DNA of 42,110 bases from a virus (lineage: Duplodnaviria > Heunggongvirae > Uroviricota > Caudoviricetes). Position numbers and translations under genes: made by a program. The notes below the pieces were generated by a model. The model was given only the letters and a program-made list of their open reading frames with translations. It was not told the DNA's origin and did not search any database. The stretch is taken from positions 1 through 42,110 of the IMG/VR virus record IMGVR_UViG_2541047875_000007; one strand, written 5' to 3'. Below are positions 1 through 40,335 of this stretch, piece by piece (within the stretch, counting starts at the first letter, position 1; the number at the start of each line of letters is the position of its first letter).

Positions 1-1158
1 ATGCTCACCGTTAAGCAGATTGAAGCAGCAAAGCCGAAAGAAAAACCATACCGCCTACTCGATGGTAATGGCCTGTACCTTTATGTCCCTGTGTCAGGGA
101 AAAAGGTATGGCAGCTTCGCTACAAGATTGACGGTAAGGAGAAAATCCTGACCGTAGGAAAATATCCGCTTATGACTTTGCAGGAGGCAAGGGATAAAGC
201 ATGGACTGCGAGGAAAGACATCTCGGTTGGCATCGATCCGGTAAAAGCGAAAAAGGCTTCGTCTAACAACAATTCCTTTAGTGCGATTTACAAGGAATGG
301 TACGAGCACAAGAAGCAAGTCTGGTCAGTAGGCTATGCAACTGAACTTGCCAAAATGTTTGATGACGACATTTTACCCATCATCGGCGGTCTTGAGATTC
401 AGGATATTGAGCCGATGCAACTGCTGGAAGTAATCCGCAGATTTGAAGATCGCGGTGCAATGGAGCGAGCCAACAAAGCCCGCAGAAGATGCGGCGAGGT
501 TTTTCGTTACGCTATTGTCACCGGAAGGGCTAAATATAACCCGGCACCTGACCTTGCAGACGCCATGAAAGGATACCGCAAGAAGAACTTCCCGTTTCTT
601 CCAGCAGACCAGATCCCTGCATTCAACAAAGCACTGGCAACATTTTCAGGAAGCATCGTATCGCTCATTGCGACCAAAGTTTTACGCTACACAGCCCTAA
701 GAACGAAAGAGCTTCGTTCCATGCAATGGAAGAACGTCGATTTTGAAAACAGGATTATCACCATCGACGCCAGTGTGATGAAGGGGCGAAAAATTCATGT
801 GGTTCCTATGTCAGACCAGGTGATTGAACTTCTCACTACGCTAAGCTCAATCACTAAACCAGTGTCAGAGTTTGTTTTTGCCGGGCGCAACGATAAGAAG
901 AAGCCAATCTGCGAGAACGCGGTATTGCTTGTGATCAAACAAATTGGCTATGAAGGGCTGGAAAGCGGTCACGGATTCAGGCATGAATTCAGCACGATTA
1001 TGAACGAGCACGAATGGCCTGCTGATGCTATTGAAGTGCAACTGGCACATGCCAACGGCGGATCTGTGCGCGGTATTTACAACCATGCGCAATATCTCGA
1101 TAAGCGCAGGGAGATGATGCAGTGGTGGGCGGACTGGATTGATGAGAAGGTGGAGTGA
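1..1158 (+). CDS. int: Tyrosine integrase of the tRNA-associated P4/CP4-57-like family; ATG at window position 1
   Basis: 385-aa ORF; N-terminus MLTVKQIEAAKPKEKPYRLLDGNGLYLYV typical of the P4-type integrase arm-binding domain; C-terminal catalytic region with R...HxxR...Y pattern. Resembles the argW-associated prophage integrase (intS-like) from memory. Confidence 0.9.
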   Translation: MLTVKQIEAAKPKEKPYRLLDGNGLYLYVPVSGKKVWQLRYKIDGKEKILTVGKYPLMTLQEARDKAWTARKDISVGIDPVKAKKASSNNNSFSAIYKEWYEHKKQVWSVGYATELAKMFDDDILPIIGGLEIQDIEPMQLLEVIRRFEDRGAMERANKARRRCGEVFRYAIVTGRAKYNPAPDLADAMKGYRKKNFPFLPADQIPAFNKALATFSGSIVSLIATKVLRYTALRTKELRSMQWKNVDFENRIITIDASVMKGRKIHVVPMSDQVIELLTTLSSITKPVSEFVFAGRNDKKKPICENAVLLVIKQIGYEGLESGHGFRHEFSTIMNEHEWPADAIEVQLAHANGGSVRGIYNHAQYLDKRREMMQWWADWIDEKVE

Positions 1159-3852: not shown

Positions 3853-4353
3853 ATGAGTAAGAGACGTCACGAGGTAGTAACTCGGGAGCGCCTTATGGAG
3901 GTTCTCGATTACAATAAAGAAACAGGAATTTTCACTTGGAAAAAGAAATTAAGCGCCAGAGGTGCTGTTGGGAAAGTTGCTGGCACAATTTCTTATGGAT
4001 ATAACGCAATTAATATTGATGGCGTAAGATATTTTGCACATAGACTTGCCTGGCTGTATGTATATGGCGAATGGCCCAAACAAGAGATTGACCACATTGA
4101 TAGAAACAGAAGAAATAACGCAATCTCAAACCTTAGGGATGTCAGCAGAGTCGTAAATGCATTAAATGTCGGACCTCGAAATAGCAATGCTGGAATCAAG
4201 GGGGTAACTTTCTGTCAAGCCAGAAATCAATGGCAAGCTCAGATAAATGTCTCAGGTAAAAACATAACCCTTGGGAGATTCAACACCATTGATGAAGCGG
4301 CTATAGCTTATAAGGCAGCAAACATGGTTGCTGACCATCTGTTGAGTAGGTAA
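3853..4353 (+). CDS. HNH endonuclease with C-terminal AP2-like DNA-binding domain (homing-endonuclease-like)
   Basis: ORF-track ORF 3811-4353 trimmed to ATG 3853 preceded by GGAG. Contains [13 protein letters not shown]...[18 protein letters not shown] (HNH) and GVTF...QWQAQI...[16 protein letters not shown] (AP2-like). Confidence 0.7.
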
Positions 4354-5366: not shown

Positions 5367-5434
5367 GTTGGTTTTTCTCCACGAATTTACTGACAACAGA
5401 AGCCCTGACTGTTCCCGCAGTTGGGGCTTCAACT

Positions 5435-25696: not shown

Positions 25697-25865
25697 CGTC
25701 TTCTTCCTCGTACATTGAGCTATTCGGATCGCTCATCAGTTCTGCACAGCAGTGCTCACACACGTGAACTTCCAGCACATGCAGCTTCTGACCGCAGTTA
25801 GCGCACGTTAAAGCCCGCTCGACGCTTTCTTTCTGGTATTGAATGGATTGGGATGGGCTAAGCAT
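25689..25865 (-). CDS. ninF: NinF-like protein
   Basis: 58 aa from ATG 25865 (the track's ORF begins at an upstream TTG); [58 protein letters not shown] matches lambda NinF. Confidence 0.8.
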   Translation of the reverse strand: MLSPSQSIQYQKESVERALTCANCGQKLHVLEVHVCEHCCAELMSDPNSSMYEEEDDE

Positions 25866-26808
25866 TAACAACCTCCATACAAACTTTCACGAATGCCGTT
25901 GCTACTTCTGCATTGATTGCGTTTCCATATCCAATAATTCGCTGATCTTGATTGCGCTTTGCCATTCTTCCCAGTGTGGACTTGCCTCGTCCCAAGCTTT
26001 TGGCAATGCCATTAACCATCGGGAATGAGCCGGGTCTAACTGGACGATATTTTTCATCTCTACAGTAAAGCCAGTCTGCATCTCTCCAGAAGCCGTTAAC
26101 CGGTAATGGGTACATAGCTTCACCGTCCCGGGAAGTTTCAAGCAGATTCTTGGGGTTCCGCTCTTGTCTTTTCCGCTGTAGCAATGCGTTGAACCTGTTG
26201 CATCGTTCGCTAAAGGAGTTTGCCATCCCGCTAGTCTCACGCATCCAGATAGGTTCTGAATTCCCCTGCGCGTCTCTGGCTGAAAGTTGATATTTGTCGT
26301 TGGAGTAGGCCACCCAATACAATCGCTGCCTAATGTGCGGAGAACCGAAGCCCGCAGCGCAAATATCGGTACCTGCAGAGGTGTAGTTCGCACCTTCCAA
26401 GTCAGTTTGTACAAGGTCGAGCCAAGCGAGGCCGTCTGCGCTTGCAACCTGTTCGCCAATAACGATGCCAGGATTGCATTTTTCAATAAGCCAGAAGAAT
26501 GCCGGCCATAAGTGCCGCTCGTCATCAACCCCTTTTCCTTTGCCTGCCGAGCTGAAAGGTTGGCATGGGCAACTTCCTGTCCAGATACTCTTGTTGTCTG
26601 GCCATCCTGCTTTTCTAAGTGCATAGCTCCAAACTCCGATTCCTGCAAAAAAGTGGTGCTGGGTAAATCCTCGCAAATCACCTGGTGTGACATCTTCAAT
26701 ACTCCTTTCATCTACATAACCGGGGGCAATTTCTCCAGCGTCAATTAAGTTACGCAGCCATTGCGCTGCATACGGATCTATTTCGTTGTAATACGCAGTC
26801 ATCGTCAT
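25858..26808 (-). CDS. DNA cytosine-5 methyltransferase (orphan; no adjacent restriction endonuclease)
   Basis: Motif I FFAGIGV and motif IV catalytic [13 protein letters not shown]. Start is either ATG 26808 (overlaps the ninE stop) or ATG 26802 (GAGGAA 8 nt upstream). Confidence 0.85.
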
Positions 26809-35808: not shown

Positions 35809-36102
35809 ATGCCAGCGCCTCTGTATGGTGCGGATGACGCGCGCCGCTGTTCCGGCAATTCCGTATCGGAGGTGCTGGATAAATTCAGGAAAAACTACGA
35901 CCGGATAATGTCGCTACCGCAGGAAACGAAAGAGGAAAAGGAATTTCGCCATTGTATATGGCTTGCAGAGAAAGAAGAACGCGAGCGAATTTACCAGACA
36001 TCAATCCGACCATTCCGCAAAGCCACATATACCCACTTCCCTGAAATTGACCCGCGCCTGCGTAATTACCGCTCACGCTATGGCGCTATCAGTAATGACT
36101 GA
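35809..36102 (+). CDS. Hypothetical protein (97 aa)
   Basis: ATG with GGAG upstream. Confidence 0.55.
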
Positions 36103-36112
36103 GGAATTTACC

Positions 36113-36277
36113 ATGAGAGGACTTGCATACAATCCCGGCATTCTTCCGGCAGAAATGATTATTCGCCAACGCGTAAAGCCAATGCCATCGAGAGAGGAAT
36201 TGCTTAAGAGAAATTCTTTTCCATCAGTGAATCAAAACAAATATCTGAATGCGATGTGGCGGAGTGGGAAAAAATGA
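36113..36277 (+). CDS. Hypothetical small protein (54 aa)
   Basis: ATG 36113 with GAGGAA 6 nt upstream; the ORF-track ORF 35963-36277 overlaps the previous gene and was trimmed. Confidence 0.45.
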
Positions 36278-36711
36278 AACAAATGTCACTAATTGAGATG
36301 GATGGTTTTCTGAAAGGTAAATGCATCCCACGAGATTTAAAGGTTAACGAAACAAACGCTGAATATCTGGTGCGTAAATTTGCTGAAGCGGAGGCCAAGT
36401 GCGCGGCGCTGGCTGCTGAAGTTGAGGCTGTGAAATCAGCACATCAAGATGCTGTAAACACCATCATGTATACCGCCAATCGAACGGGTGTTTTATACAC
36501 AGAGAAGGCAATTCAAATGTCCTGCAAAACCCCGGCCACCGATGCTTTCCTGACTGAAGTCCGGGCTAAGGCGTTTGATGACCTTTGCGCGGCGTTCGTT
36601 AAGCACGCGTCGGTGTCCGGGCTGGACGATGGCGACTGCGTTACGGTGAAAGAGGCGACTGACGCCCTGCTGCATTGTGCGGAACAGCTTCACAAGGGAG
36701 TGCATTCATGA
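36274..36711 (+). CDS. Hypothetical protein (145 aa)
   Basis: ATG 36274 overlaps the previous stop (ATGA); GGAG upstream. Confidence 0.55.
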
Positions 36712-36941
36712 GCAACCTACTACCATGTCCATTCTGTGGCGGTGCAGCGCACGTTGCCAGCGAAGCAGATCACCCTGAATATGGCTCTGGCGGTCGATTC
36801 TATTTCGTTCGATGCGGTACGTGTCGCGCTCAATCTGGTAGCAAATATGCAGCGCCTGGAAATGACTGCGCGATTTTTTATTCAGAGGTTAGAGCAGAGT
36901 GGAATCAGCGAGCAAAGGAGGCAACCAGTGAGCAAGATTGA
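36708..36941 (+). CDS. Lar-family restriction-alleviation-like zinc-ribbon protein
   Basis: [12 protein letters not shown]...FVRCGTCRAQSG...AEWNQR fits the remembered Lar-family pattern; ATG overlaps the preceding stop. Confidence 0.6.
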   Translation: MSNLLPCPFCGGAAHVASEADHPEYGSGGRFYFVRCGTCRAQSGSKYAAPGNDCAIFYSEVRAEWNQRAKEATSEQD

Positions 36942-37335
36942 CTATCAGGCACTGCGTGAAGCGGCAGAGAAAGCCGGTGAAGATAAGTGGCAGGCTAAAA
37001 AAATAAATGGTGATTTTTTCGTTATTCGTCACGGTAGTTATACAAGACAGCATGGCTACACATCGTATCAACCCATTGCGGAGATTGATTGTAAGCCAGT
37101 CCGGGATTTTGTTGCCAAGGCTAATCCGGCTACCGTGCTGGAATTACTGGATGAACTGGAAGCAGCAAAAAAGCGCATTGCAGAACTGGAAGCGCGGGAA
37201 ATATCGCTCCCGGAACGTAGCAGCATGCTTCATCGAACAGATTTTCACGATGATTACCAAACGGTAATGGCATACAAAGTTTCTGAAGTCATCGATGCAA
37301 TCCGCGCTACTGGCATTCGCATCAAAGGAGAGTGA
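36928..37335 (+). CDS. Ead/Ea22-like protein (135 aa); GTG start
   Basis: GTG 36928 preceded by AGGAGG; VSKIDYQALREAAEKAGEDKW... and coiled-coil ELLDELEAAKKRIAELEARE resemble Ead/Ea22-family proteins; overlaps the Lar-like gene by 14 nt. Confidence 0.5.
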   Translation: MSKIDYQALREAAEKAGEDKWQAKKINGDFFVIRHGSYTRQHGYTSYQPIAEIDCKPVRDFVAKANPATVLELLDELEAAKKRIAELEAREISLPERSSMLHRTDFHDDYQTVMAYKVSEVIDAIRATGIRIKGE

Positions 37336-37336
37336 T

Positions 37337-37852
37337 ATGGCGTTAACACACAGCGAACTCTGTCAGATTGCGTACAAGTTCCTTAAGCGCAACGGGTTCA
37401 AGGTTTATTTTCATGACCGCTTTATAGCTGTAACCAGTACCGGAGAACAGCCAGATGCTATGGGATTCAGAAATTCAGCATCATGCCTGATAGAGGCGAA
37501 GTGTTCTCGTGCTGACTTGTTGGCAGATAGAAAAAAGCGTTTCCGTAAAAATCCGTCTTTTGGAATGGGCGACTGGCGATTCTTTATTAGTGAGCCGGGA
37601 ATTATTTCAATTGAGGATTTACCTCCCGGCTGGGGATTACTTCACGTTGTTAACGGAAGAGTACGGAAAGTACATGGGTGGCCCAAGGGTAATTGCTGTT
37701 GGGGTAATCCTGACGATAAGCCATTTACTGGAAATAAGCAGGTTGAATGCGATTACATGTTATCTGCATTAAGGCGCATGGAGTTGAGAGGGCACCTTAA
37801 TGAAATATATGACGGTGTAATTGTTAATAAGAAAGAAGGAAACGCGGCATGA
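37337..37852 (+). CDS. Hypothetical protein with a PD-(D/E)xK nuclease-like motif
   Basis: ATG 37337 with AGGAG upstream; GEQPDAMGF...CLIEAKCS fits a PD...ExK signature; Cys-rich segment GNCCWGN. Confidence 0.45.
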   Translation: MALTHSELCQIAYKFLKRNGFKVYFHDRFIAVTSTGEQPDAMGFRNSASCLIEAKCSRADLLADRKKRFRKNPSFGMGDWRFFISEPGIISIEDLPPGWGLLHVVNGRVRKVHGWPKGNCCWGNPDDKPFTGNKQVECDYMLSALRRMELRGHLNEIYDGVIVNKKEGNAA

Positions 37853-38676
37853 TCACGATTACCAAAGAGTTCACCAAAGAGCAGTTGATTGAGCAGGCTA
37901 AGAAGAATATTGAGGTTCTTCGCGTTGCGGTGGAAAGAGTCCCAGGCGCTTATGATGCGGCGGTTATTCACCTCAAGCTGGCTGAAATTACGCTGGCATC
38001 GCTGGAAGCAGAGCCAGTGGCAAAGATTATAGCTCACTACCCATTAGGAATTGACGTAGGCAAACAAAAGTTCGTACAGGCCATTGGAGAGCTTCCTGAT
38101 TTTGGCGGATATCTATTCGCTGTGCCGCCAGCGCCGATAGCGTTGGAGGCTATTGAAAATGCAATTGAATACATTCGCAGTATCGCTTTTCACATAGATG
38201 AAGACGATTACCACGGCAAACATATTGCGTATTTCATGCGACAAGCATTGGCCTGGCTGGAAGGGCGTTCATGCAGCGACGACAGACTGGGTAAAGCCGA
38301 GAATCAACCAGTACGCGGCAATGAGTGGACTGGCAATCCTGATATTGATAACGCCATCATCATGCTCGACCGCATAGATACGCTGGAAAATTGTGATGAT
38401 GACCGTATTGAGGGTGTTAAGGCTGTTTTGCGCAGACTGGCTGTCAACTATCCGGTAACTCCGGATGGTTGGATAAGCTGTAGTGAGCGAATGCCGGATA
38501 GCAAAACAGCTGTTCTTGTTGCCAAGGAGTTTGATAGGAAAGGTGACTGGCGAATGAAATGGGCGACTTACATACCGGGGCATCCTGACGCTAATGATGG
38601 TTGGATAATTCCTGGTGCGTCGTGGAAACCGTCACACTGGATGCCGCTACCAGAACCGCCGCAGGAGGCAAAATGA
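37849..38676 (+). CDS. DUF551-domain protein
   Basis: 275 aa; C-terminal GWISCSERMPDSKTAVLV...WIIPGASWKPSHWMPLPEPP matches the remembered DUF551 pattern. Confidence 0.6.
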   Translation: MITITKEFTKEQLIEQAKKNIEVLRVAVERVPGAYDAAVIHLKLAEITLASLEAEPVAKIIAHYPLGIDVGKQKFVQAIGELPDFGGYLFAVPPAPIALEAIENAIEYIRSIAFHIDEDDYHGKHIAYFMRQALAWLEGRSCSDDRLGKAENQPVRGNEWTGNPDIDNAIIMLDRIDTLENCDDDRIEGVKAVLRRLAVNYPVTPDGWISCSERMPDSKTAVLVAKEFDRKGDWRMKWATYIPGHPDANDGWIIPGASWKPSHWMPLPEPPQEAK

Positions 38677-38933
38677 TGGATGTAAAAGAGAAGGTTTTGC
38701 AGGTGATGCGTTCCCGGGCTGCCCTGCAAGATAAAGCTCTCGGCGGGGAATATCCATTCAGGATGGCAACCTGGAATCTGCGGTTGGCAATGGAGAAGGA
38801 ATTTCCTGATGAAGAATGGCGTTCGGCAGATTTGCGCAAAATTCTTATGGAGCTGGCTAAAGACGGAACAGTATCCAAAGATACCCATGCCAGCCGGATT
38901 GGTCAGGCGGTATGGAGACTGGAGGTGAGGTAA
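38673..38933 (+). CDS. Hypothetical protein (86 aa)
   Basis: ATG 38673 with AGGAGG upstream; overlaps the previous stop. Confidence 0.55.
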   Translation: MMDVKEKVLQVMRSRAALQDKALGGEYPFRMATWNLRLAMEKEFPDEEWRSADLRKILMELAKDGTVSKDTHASRIGQAVWRLEVR

Positions 38934-39217
38934 TGGCTAACCTGCAACTTGCCGTTAAAGGTGAATACTTCGATGCCATGATTCGCGGGGAGAAAACGGA
39001 AGAGTATCGCCTGTGTAATGACTACTGGAATAAGCGCCTCGTTAACCGTAAGTATGACCGCCTGATTATCACAAAGGGATATCCGAAGCGCGACGATTCC
39101 AGCCGCAGAATTGACGTCCCGTATGACGGATATGAAATCAAGACAATCACACATCCCCACTTCGGCGATAAACCGGTAAAGGTGTTCGCGATAAAGGTGA
39201 ATATCGGCAATGAATAA
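38933..39217 (+). CDS. ASCH/DUF3850-like (PUA-fold) protein
   Basis: MANLQLAVKGEYFDAMIRGEKTEEYRLCNDYW...YDRLIITKGY fits the ASCH-like pattern; TAATG overlap with the previous gene. Confidence 0.45.
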   Translation: MANLQLAVKGEYFDAMIRGEKTEEYRLCNDYWNKRLVNRKYDRLIITKGYPKRDDSSRRIDVPYDGYEIKTITHPHFGDKPVKVFAIKVNIGNE

Positions 39218-39288
39218 CAATCCTCGAACTCGCGGGGATTTCTTTTATCTGAACTCGCTACGGCGGGTTTTGTTTTATGGAGATGATT

Positions 39289-39588
39289 ATGGCCTGTTCA
39301 ACATTCAACCATCTAACGTTACAGAAATACCAGCCAGACCCTGAAGATTTATGCTCACTGTGTGGCGGAAATCATGGTAAAGCCGCCATGATCGAATGTA
39401 AGGACAAAATCCACATTTGCCTTAATTGCGTTGATGTCCTCGTTGATATCAAAAATGAGAGAGAAGATAAAAAGCGTAGCGAGGCTATTCGCGCATTAGA
39501 TTCATGGATGCGAGATGGGTATAGTGCTGCGCAAATTTATGACTTCGCAATATCAAAAGGCGAAATACCAGGAGTGCGCATCGAATAA
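39289..39588 (+). CDS. Hypothetical zinc-ribbon protein
   Basis: ATG 39289 with GGAG 5 nt upstream; CSLCGG...CLNC cysteine pairs. Confidence 0.5.
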   Translation: MACSTFNHLTLQKYQPDPEDLCSLCGGNHGKAAMIECKDKIHICLNCVDVLVDIKNEREDKKRSEAIRALDSWMRDGYSAAQIYDFAISKGEIPGVRIE

Positions 39589-39630
39589 GACGTAACCAAT
39601 ATTCGAATTGAAGAACTGAAAGAACACCAA

Positions 39631-39652
39631 GCCGCCTGATGGCGGTTTTTTA
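39631..39652 (+). terminator. Intrinsic terminator
   Basis: GCCGCC-TGAT-GGCGG followed by TTTTTTATT. Confidence 0.55.
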
Positions 39653-39665
39653 TTGGAGACAAGAA

Positions 39666-40010
39666 ATGTCAGATTTGGCTATGAAGATTTTGAAATGGCA
39701 AACGACTGGCGATGTTGGCATCAGTAGCGCAACTCTTGCCTCAATCGCATGTGGACTGAAAAAGAATATCTATGGTCATCACTTCGGCGCTCCACATGAC
39801 GCAGCAGATTTCCGACGATGCGTTGCACTTGTTGAGCAGATTCCAGAAGTCAGAGATTCATTCGACAAGGTTGCAAAGCGTGTTCCGGCATTCAAAGGCA
39901 TTCTCAACGAATGGGATTCCCTCGTTGCTCTGTTGAAGTCTGAAATGAAGATACACGGAAACAAAGCACCAGAGACTTACAGAAGAATTAGCGAGTTACG
40001 CAAGGATTAA
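39666..40010 (+). CDS. Hypothetical protein (114 aa)
   Basis: ATG 39666 with GGAG 7 nt upstream. Confidence 0.55.
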   Translation: MSDLAMKILKWQTTGDVGISSATLASIACGLKKNIYGHHFGAPHDAADFRRCVALVEQIPEVRDSFDKVAKRVPAFKGILNEWDSLVALLKSEMKIHGNKAPETYRRISELRKD

Positions 40011-40068
40011 CCACAGCCTCACACTCGATGAGGCCTGTTCATTTCTCAAGATATCCAGACCTACCATC

Positions 40069-40089
40069 GCCGCATCAATGCGGTTTTTT
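40069..40089 (+). terminator. Intrinsic terminator upstream of xis
   Basis: CCGCAT-CAA-TGCGG followed by TTTTTTATT. Confidence 0.55.
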
Positions 40090-40134: not shown

Positions 40135-40335
40135 ATGCAACACGAACTACAGCCTGATTCACTGGTTGATTTGAAATTCATCATGGCCGATACTGGCTTT
40201 GGTAAAACCTTCATCTACGACCGGATTAAGTCCGGCGACCTGCCAAAAGCCAAAGTTATCCACGGGCGAGCAAGATGGTTATATCGTGACCATTGTGAAT
40301 TCAAAAATAAGCTCTTAAGCCGCGCCAATGGGTAA
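40135..40335 (+). CDS. xis: AlpA-family excisionase / DNA-binding regulator
   Basis: 66 aa; ...LKFIMADTGFGKTFIYDRIKSGDLPKAKVIHGRARWLYRD... HTH of the AlpA/Xis type; GGAG upstream; lies next to the att core. Confidence 0.75.
   Translation: MQHELQPDSLVDLKFIMADTGFGKTFIYDRIKSGDLPKAKVIHGRARWLYRDHCEFKNKLLSRANG

Follow-up and report, generated by a model that had tools for sequence, protein, structure and literature searches.

What kind of unit do seven small genes form when they follow one another almost without spacing in the early region of a prophage, and do their products belong to one system? The question is raised by positions 36274 to 39217 of the IMG/VR virus record IMGVR_UViG_2541047875_000007 (Caudoviricetes), whose 42,110 nucleotides (nt) are hereafter called the window. 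The genes are named g1 to g7 by position. All seven open reading frames (ORFs) were shown to be real + strand genes that are packed stop-on-start, each with its own Shine-Dalgarno (SD) element. The block is probably the accessory 'ea'/exo-xis segment of the early-left (pL) operon, made of independently exchangeable cassettes and not of one multi-protein system. Judging from the sequence, it would be a unit for expression; in evolution it is an assembly of separately exchangeable cassettes.

The gene junctions were read directly from the sequence and then recomputed by script:

36274..36711, + strand: g1, whose ATG overlaps the TGA of the preceding DUF2737 gene (ATGA)
36708..36941, + strand: g2, ATGA overlap with g1
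36928..37335, + strand: g3, GTG start, 14-nt overlap with g2, AGGAGG ending 6 nt upstream
37337..37852, + strand: g4, 1-nt gap after g3
37849..38676, + strand: g5, ATGA overlap with g4
38673..38933, + strand: g6, ATGA overlap with g5
38933..39217, + strand: g7, TAATG overlap with g6

From the DUF2737 gene to g7, the gaps were -4, -4, -14, +1, -4, -4, and -1 nt, and all seven starts lay on the preceding stop or 1 nt after it, in agreement with a preliminary description of this DNA that had placed them on the stop or within a few nt of it. None of the seven ORFs contained an internal stop by the script, and a purine-rich SD-like element was present no more than 20 nt upstream of each start. The coordinates in the RefSeq annotation (PGAP) were identical for six of the seven genes, including the GTG start. 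The preliminary description had let the chain begin at 36274; the overlaps were confirmed, while the beginning was not, with the DUF2737 gene (36113..36277) overlapping g1 by ATGA and the choice of seven being arbitrary. From the Rad52-like gene (34012) through g7, all neighbours were at most 16 nt apart.

Substitutions relative to related loci at the first, second and third codon positions of the + frame were 3:3:20 in g4, 24:32:57 in g5, and 11:7:36 in g7. This excess at the third position identifies the + strand as the coding strand. ORFs of about 100 amino acids (aa) were also found on the opposite strand:

38903-39220, - strand: antisense ORF matching phrog_20945 (E 6e-57)
38269-38583, - strand: antisense ORF matching phrog_23547
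38568-38888, - strand: antisense ORF matching phrog_19126

Antisense ORFs (94-106 aa), some of them with a PHROG match, were rejected as shadow ORFs, the substitution pattern favouring the + strand, and the families phrog_20945, phrog_23547 and phrog_19126 look like collections of mis-called shadow ORFs. A consensus scan found no promoter-like site on the + strand inside 36274-39217. No Rfam family was found within the block, the only match in the window being the sar RNA in immI.

Overlapping junctions between genes on the same strand made up 23 of 56 (41%) across the prophage, and in the nin region six successive junctions had a gap of at most 1 nt. The block, with seven such junctions in succession, was the longest run in the window. 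At the rate found outside the block (19/49), a run of this length has a rough chance of 0.39^7, or about 0.001 per position and about 0.07 over the prophage. The packing is real and somewhat extreme here, yet ordinary for accessory regions of lambdoid phages: many junctions of the prophage overlap, and those of the corresponding P22 and lambda regions overlap likewise.

The block had also been described as one tightly coupled unit. On the evidence of the sequence this is valid for expression only; as an evolutionary statement it failed, the block being a mosaic with breakpoints at gene borders. Only 2 of 5426 complete E. coli genomes held at least 80% of the block, while pieces of it were present in 3262, with 582 places on plasmids. 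The 4.5-kb region was not covered to 80% by any phage record. When five related loci were compared by local BLASTN, the breakpoints fell at 36912/36929 (the start of g3), at 37318 (three times), at 37869 (twice), within g5, and at 39204 (three times). The breakpoint at 37318 lies 19 nt before g4, within a linker consisting of the IRIKGE codons, the stop and the SD element:

37318..37339, + strand: conserved SD-stop-start linker (..AAAGGAGAGTGATATG); homology to three other loci starts at 37318

In the form ..AAAGGAGAGTGA(T/G)ATG, this linker was found after two different upstream genes and before two different downstream genes. In strain 2014C-4423 (L004), two copies of it bracket a three-gene insertion of about 860 bp. 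From these sequence comparisons, the linker at 37318..37339 is taken to double as a recombination joint.

The same cassettes were present in Shiga toxin (Stx) phages and in P7-related phage-plasmids of 95-100 kb, and the pair of Ead-type gene and g4 was also found in another prophage, with replication gene P on one side and the terminase gene on the other. In P7 (L013, 86516-92028), the 'hea' operon behind the C1 operator contains an Ead-like gene, Upf89.0 and the genes after it, and the junctions show the same 1-nt gap and 4-nt overlap as the block. Natural fusions joined an Ead N-terminus to the g4 nuclease (P0087 and P0009) or g4 to DUF551 (P0020), and further proteins of the fusion set (P0034 and P0097) carried g4 with other extensions. 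These fusions show ongoing domain shuffling in the region. Outside this prophage lineage the combination of the seven genes is almost absent, whereas Stx phages, phage-plasmids of the P1/P7 type and other prophages commonly carry the individual cassettes. The block is considered a patchwork and not an inherited unit because the combination is rare, the breakpoints fall at gene borders and the fusions occur.

The window is a complete P22-like prophage of E. coli FDAARGOS_1256 with argW as its integration site, and the 2944 bp of the block were 100% identical to the chromosome of this strain (NZ_CP069451.1). The + strand right part contains, in order, N, small ORFs, a Rad52-like recombinase, SSB, a 3'-5' exonuclease, abc2 and the block; two further small ORFs and a TorI-type excisionase gene (xis) follow. 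This RefSeq gene map identifies the right part as the early-left (pL/N) operon and upheld the earlier placement of the genes in the early-left region. The genes directly upstream of the block were the following:

35809..36102, + strand: abc2 (anti-RecBCD), upstream border of the block; Pfam PF11043 at 209 bits and 93% identity to P22 Abc2
36113..36277, + strand: DUF2737 gene, equivalent of P22 orf56; PF10930 at 108 bits and 75% identity to P22 orf56

The position between abc2/orf56 and xis is that of the ea genes in P22 and of the exo-xis region in lambda. The P22 order is abc2-orf56-eaE-orf45-eaF-eaD-eaI-eaA-eaG-eaC-xis. P22 shares the pL-operon position and the first two genes with the prophage, together with an EaE-like third gene (34% identity) and an EaA-like DUF551 C-terminus (37%), and its ea genes are also packed stop-on-start, with overlaps of 4-26 nt. 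In contrast, the Lar-like gene, the MmcB-like nuclease gene, the 86-aa gene and the ASCH gene were without a P22 counterpart (BLASTP, E<=0.01). In lambda and Stx phages, the exo-xis region (orf60a, orf63, orf61, orf73, ea22 and ea8.5) is likewise a set of small genes that pL drives early and that separate the recombination genes from xis; those of lambda overlap by 4-28 nt. Both the prophage and lambda have an Ea22-type gene that starts with GTG and encodes a conserved N-terminus and an IRIKGE tail. However, the lambda core genes orf60a, orf63, orf61 and orf73 had no detectable homologue among the seven genes, and the recombination genes are Exo/Bet/Gam in lambda but Rad52-like/SSB/exonuclease/Abc2 here. 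Four of the seven genes have no counterpart in P22 or lambda. An accessory stretch of this kind is to be expected in a P22-like prophage, and the block is another instance of the well-known P22 ea/lambda exo-xis region. Its modest additions are a structural assignment of an MmcB-like nuclease (P7 Upf89.0), the GKER motif in a phage ASCH protein, and linkers that serve as recombination joints.

Five domain assignments had been proposed for the products, and all of them proved right. Searches with hidden Markov models (HMMs) recovered Lar, Ead/Ea22 and DUF551; PD-(D/E)xK and ASCH were not recovered by HMM and were instead obtained from structure and motif. In NCBIfam, the only matches were a sub-threshold one to Lar and a weak one of a neighbouring 99-aa ORF to the ClpX zinc finger. 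No significant PDB match was obtained for g1, g4, g5, g6 or g7 in searches with the sequence and with profiles of close homologues.

Three of the products belong to the Ea type. The g1 protein (145 aa) matched phrog_614 (E 4e-49) and had no Pfam match. It was 34% identical to P22 EaE over 89 aa and is encoded at the same position after orf56; its 6917 relatives are 130-240 aa long, and part of them carry PF13935. By these sequence relations, g1 is best classed as an EaE-like member of the hypervariable Ead/Ea22-related pool. The g3 protein (135 aa) matched PF13935 (Ead_Ea22) at 68.4 bits against a threshold of 27, and its residues 1-135 aligned to positions 1-133 of the 133 of phrog_1667. Its N-terminal 21 aa were 62% identical to lambda Ea22, the N-terminus VSKIDYQALREAAEKA was common to lambda Ea22 and other loci, and the C-terminal tail ...GIRIKGE was also in common with lambda Ea22.

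The GTG start at 36928, proposed earlier, agreed with PGAP, with homology that sets in at 36912/36929, with the alignment to phrog_1667 from residue 1 and with the retention of GTG and AGGAGG in other loci. There, the context AAAGGAGGCAACCA-GTG-AGC... was kept before Ea22-type genes behind unrelated upstream DNA. One other locus had ATG at the position of this start codon, and lambda ea22 is likewise annotated with a GTG start. A longer g3 ORF starting at 36736 or 36781 was rejected, homology elsewhere beginning at about 36912-36929 behind unrelated DNA. The extension of the g3 frame across g2 (36736-36927, + strand) matched positions 32-93 of the 179 of phrog_4132 (E 1.5e-22), which may represent a family of shadow ORFs or a genuine overlapping gene in other phages.

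The g5 protein (275 aa) matched DUF551 (PF04448) at 77 bits (threshold 22), with residues 207-272 aligned to positions 1-68 of the 68 of the model, and its C-terminus was 37% identical to that of P22 EaA. Homology breakpoints inside g5 were found at 37869, 38021, 38140, about 38440, 38495, and about 38636. These breakpoints coincide with domain borders, and g5 is a mosaic EaA-like protein with a C-terminal DUF551 domain. The sister prophage of strain Combat2C1 (L002) was more than 99.6% identical across the region, save for a replaced stretch of about 140 nt in the DUF551 part of g5. This stretch (5222-5343 of L002 against 38495-38637 of the window) is a very local recombination patch.

BLASTP among g1, g3 and g5 gave no significant similarity, and the three are related only through PHROG and Pfam families, with overlapping membership in phrog_368, 14548 and 60. 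Ea22 has been described as a mosaic protein in which DUF551 is a portable C-terminal domain (PMC10834534), and the shared pool of g1, g3 and g5 agrees with this description. By analogy with what is reported for lambda and Stx Ea22, the three proteins may, and probably do, bias the lysis-lysogeny decision.

Extended to the whole block, the same idea becomes a tentative alternative in which the seven products are developmental modulators that tune lysis-lysogeny and induction through host replication, transcription or stress pathways, as in the lambda and Stx exo-xis region. The genomic position is identical to that of the exo-xis region; according to published lambda and Stx work, this region consists of early genes that can be dispensed with and that influence lysogenisation and induction. 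Moreover, g3 has its N-terminus, GTG start and C-terminal tail in common with lambda Ea22, for which a prolysogenic role has been published, and g1 and g5 come from the same mosaic pool. However, none of the lambda core genes named above has a detectable homologue in the block; there is no obvious fit for the nuclease, the Lar ribbon or the ASCH protein; and the phenotypes in the literature are modest ones obtained with multicopy expression.

The g2 protein (77 aa) matched Pfam Lar (PF14354) at 38.5 bits, above the cut-off of 28.6, and NCBIfam TIGR03655 at 29.4 bits, under the cut-off of 39.6. Its four-cysteine zinc ribbon (C7-P-F-C10 and C37-G-T-C40) aligned with CPFCG...C..C of RalR. Like K-12 Rac Lar/RalR, g2 is a small CxxC zinc-ribbon protein whose gene lies in the interval that separates the recombination genes from xis in a lambdoid prophage; identity to the Rac protein was 26% over just 42 aa. 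In K-12, RalR is annotated as the DNase toxin of a type I toxin-antitoxin pair with RalA RNA, and no RalA-like antisense or antitoxin RNA was detected near g2 by Rfam. From its resemblance to Lar, g2 may moderate type I restriction, and probably does.

The preliminary description had read the mix of genes as typical counter-defence cargo. It is doubtful, though possible, that counter-defence is the business of the whole block, with most or all of the seven proteins inhibiting host immunity (restriction, RecBCD-linked or abortive infection) early. The block lies directly downstream of abc2, and accessory regions beside abc2 and ral hold fast-evolving genes associated with counter-defence (bioRxiv 10.1101/2023.04.06.535777). 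None of the seven families is named there or in the follow-up. High turnover and mosaicism are what an arms race would yield, and modification-dependent restriction enzymes have modified-base readers that PUA-like/ASCH folds resemble. For g2, as a member of the Lar family with abc2 in the neighbourhood, a role in counter-defence is plausible. Against counter-defence as the task of the whole block stand the score of g2 below the NCBIfam Lar cut-off and its low, short identity to Rac Lar/RalR. The relatives that have been studied (lambda and Stx Ea22, orf60a, orf61 and orf63) affect lysis-lysogeny and host physiology and not immunity, and P22 and lambda place the restriction-alleviation gene ral elsewhere in pL. 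Counter-defence, plausible as part of the explanation, and developmental modulation are on a par, and both are compatible with the description of the block as an array of cassettes.

The g4 protein (171 aa) is encoded by an intact ORF and is the equivalent of P7 Upf89.0 (98% identity). No Pfam match was found even at E<=10, PF06319 included, so that the PD-(D/E)xK assignment comes from structure and from D40, E53 and K55, which were invariant in 47 close and 31 distant homologues. The protein has a restriction-endonuclease-like alpha-beta-beta-beta-alpha-beta core fold, and its D..ExK residues lie at model strands 41-45 and 48-54, the canonical strands also in the MmcB-like/DUF1052 family (PF06319). 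A profile of distant members reached 3dnx (SPO1766) by sequence (E 1e-5), the structure of this family and a member of PD-(D/E)XK family 92 (PMC3424549). Seven of the 31 distant relatives weakly matched PF06319 (best E 3e-4), and six matched Hjc. The g4 protein is a PD-(D/E)xK protein of the MmcB/Hjc-like kind. Its 323 homologues of about 160-175 aa from across Enterobacterales align end to end, an exhaustive profile search yielded 3241 representative clusters (50% identity), and the gene has 642 phage records. While PF06319 is described as mostly alphaproteobacterial and chromosomal, the g4 branch is phage-borne (Enterobacterales, Vibrio and others), and relatives of g4 stand alone in virulent Vibrio phages and in Ackermannviridae phages. 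Judging by its family, g4 probably cuts, or at least may cut, a DNA structure, as a structure-specific or other DNA nuclease.

In RefSeq, PGAP lists 37337..37515, the first 179 nt of g4, as a 'frameshifted' pseudogene and leaves 37516..37848 empty. The label recurs in four other E. coli genomes, and so in every one of the E. coli genomes inspected; at the loci L002, L004, L005, L006 and L007 as well, the remainder of g4 is unannotated or called a separate 110-aa protein. The label is an annotation artefact, because the ORF is uninterrupted, full-length homologues occur in many genera and the gene is whole as Upf89.0 in P7. A widespread and intact phage gene with a nuclease fold is thereby invisible to protein-based surveys.

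The g6 protein (86 aa) matched phrog_2814 over its full length (E 9e-53) and is called 'eaa protein' by PGAP in the sister genome. It had no match in Pfam, NCBIfam or PADLOC and no credible match in PDB. A likeness to a TPR-like designed protein (E 7e-5), in which no stretch passed alone, was dismissed as low-complexity or helical noise.

The g7 protein (94 aa) scored below the Pfam threshold for ASCH (PF04266, 14.8 against 21.2 bits, E 0.047), the match being limited to the N-terminal 41 residues. The ASCH/PUA-like assignment, negative by HMM, was supported by the ASCH beta-barrel fold and by the octapeptide G19-E-K21-T-E-E24-Y-R26. This corresponds to GxKxxExR, the 'GKER' ASCH signature (PMC6803910), and the four signature residues were invariant in 33 homologues. 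The g7 protein belongs to the GKER type of ASCH (PUA-like) domain proteins. It resembles YqfB, TthASCH, EOLA1 and ZmASCH in the beta-barrel fold, the GKER octapeptide and the small single domain, and differs from these relatives in being sub-threshold for Pfam ASCH, shorter and encoded in a phage early operon. The amidohydrolase activity on N4-acetylcytidine (ac4C) and the ribonuclease activity are those of the ASCH relatives only and not of g7. A 2026 preprint links 'GKER' ASCH proteins to tRNA ac4C deacetylation. From its motif, g7 probably binds or deacylates, or at least may do so, modified (N4-acylated) cytosine in RNA.

The stronger proposal that g7 is a phage-encoded ac4C eraser, together with the related one that g4 represents a new class of early phage nucleases with a role in counter-defence or recombination, is improbable. 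E. coli elongator tRNA-Met carries ac4C at the wobble base. If the proposal were true, early g7 could strip ac4C from host RNA, and this would bias translation or blunt a host response that depends on RNA modification.

That g4-g7 form one module, for example a sensor of nucleic-acid modification with a nuclease for prophage defence or DNA processing, would pair the nuclease fold with a PUA-like reader fold and would agree with the many P1/P7-like plasmids and Stx phages in which 37318-39204 recurs piecewise, but it is very improbable: the homology breaks up into three or four parts, most of g5 being replaced, L006 lacks g6, a different 432-aa gene follows g4 in P7, g4 relatives occur alone in the virulent Vibrio and Ackermannviridae phages, and the genes lie in a repressed early operon in which the scan found no internal promoter. 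A prophage defence system was likewise set aside, PADLOC giving no match for any of 10 proteins at E<=0.01.

The description that remains preferred is the array of exchangeable pL cassettes. Upon induction or infection, with loss of the repressor, transcription would start from pL and N-modified polymerase would read through the block. Ribosomes ending on one gene would re-initiate at the next overlapping start. Recombination in the linkers would swap cassettes without their own promoter and leave expression undisturbed, which would be possible because the cassettes end in a shared SD-stop-start linker. The products of the block would act separately on the host early in infection. Several points weigh against this account. 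We infer the transcription from pL, the antitermination and the re-initiation from the sequence and by analogy with lambda and P22. The SD element of each gene implies that strict coupling is not required. Several P1/P7-like plasmids and Stx phages carry g4-g7 together, and some of these genes may be functionally linked. Finally, the functions proposed for g2, g4 and g7 are suggested by family resemblance only. Coupling linkers that serve as exchange points would explain how promoter-less genes are shuffled among lambdoid phages, Stx phages and P1/P7 phage-plasmids and are still expressed. For counter-defence or host-takeover screens, the block also supplies a small collection of seven candidates: the Lar-like ribbon, the nuclease, the GKER-type ASCH protein and four others.

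In the RefSeq annotation, the window is directly preceded by a tRNA-Arg gene (argW), and beyond its right end are the csc sucrose genes of the host; a tRNA scan found no tRNA within the window itself. After intS, the left part contains the tailspike gene and an immI region of the ant/arc/mnt type. The middle contains P22-type injection, head, portal, coat and terminase genes, the lysis genes, Q and the nin region, followed by the replication genes, cII, cro and a LexA-family repressor. Individual features outside the block were the following:

1..1158, + strand: intS integrase (RefSeq annotation)
3895-4353, + strand: HNH endonuclease gene, between the tailspike gene and ant
5367-5434, + strand: sar antisense RNA within the P22-type immI (Rfam RF00262, 91 bits)
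25858-26802, - strand: DNA cytosine methyltransferase, in the nin region
39219..39270, + strand: two terminator-like hairpins (consensus scan; RNA fold -22.5 kcal/mol, z -3.1)
39289-39588, + strand: 99-aa ORF with four cysteines
39629-39648 and 40016-40084, + strand: further terminator-like hairpins, between the last small pL-operon genes
40135..40335, + strand: TorI-type excisionase gene, xis (RefSeq annotation)

The intS and xis genes occupy opposite ends of the prophage, a difference from P22 and a layout that we take to be that of KplE1/Sf6-type elements. The hairpins at 39219..39270 are predicted terminators that would end the tightly packed run, and the series from 39219 to 40084 probably consists of tL-type terminators that are passed by N-modified polymerase. 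The 99-aa ORF matched phrog_3680 over its full length, and it weakly resembled the C4 zinc finger of ClpX (E 0.015 in Pfam; E 0.002 for ClpX in NCBIfam).

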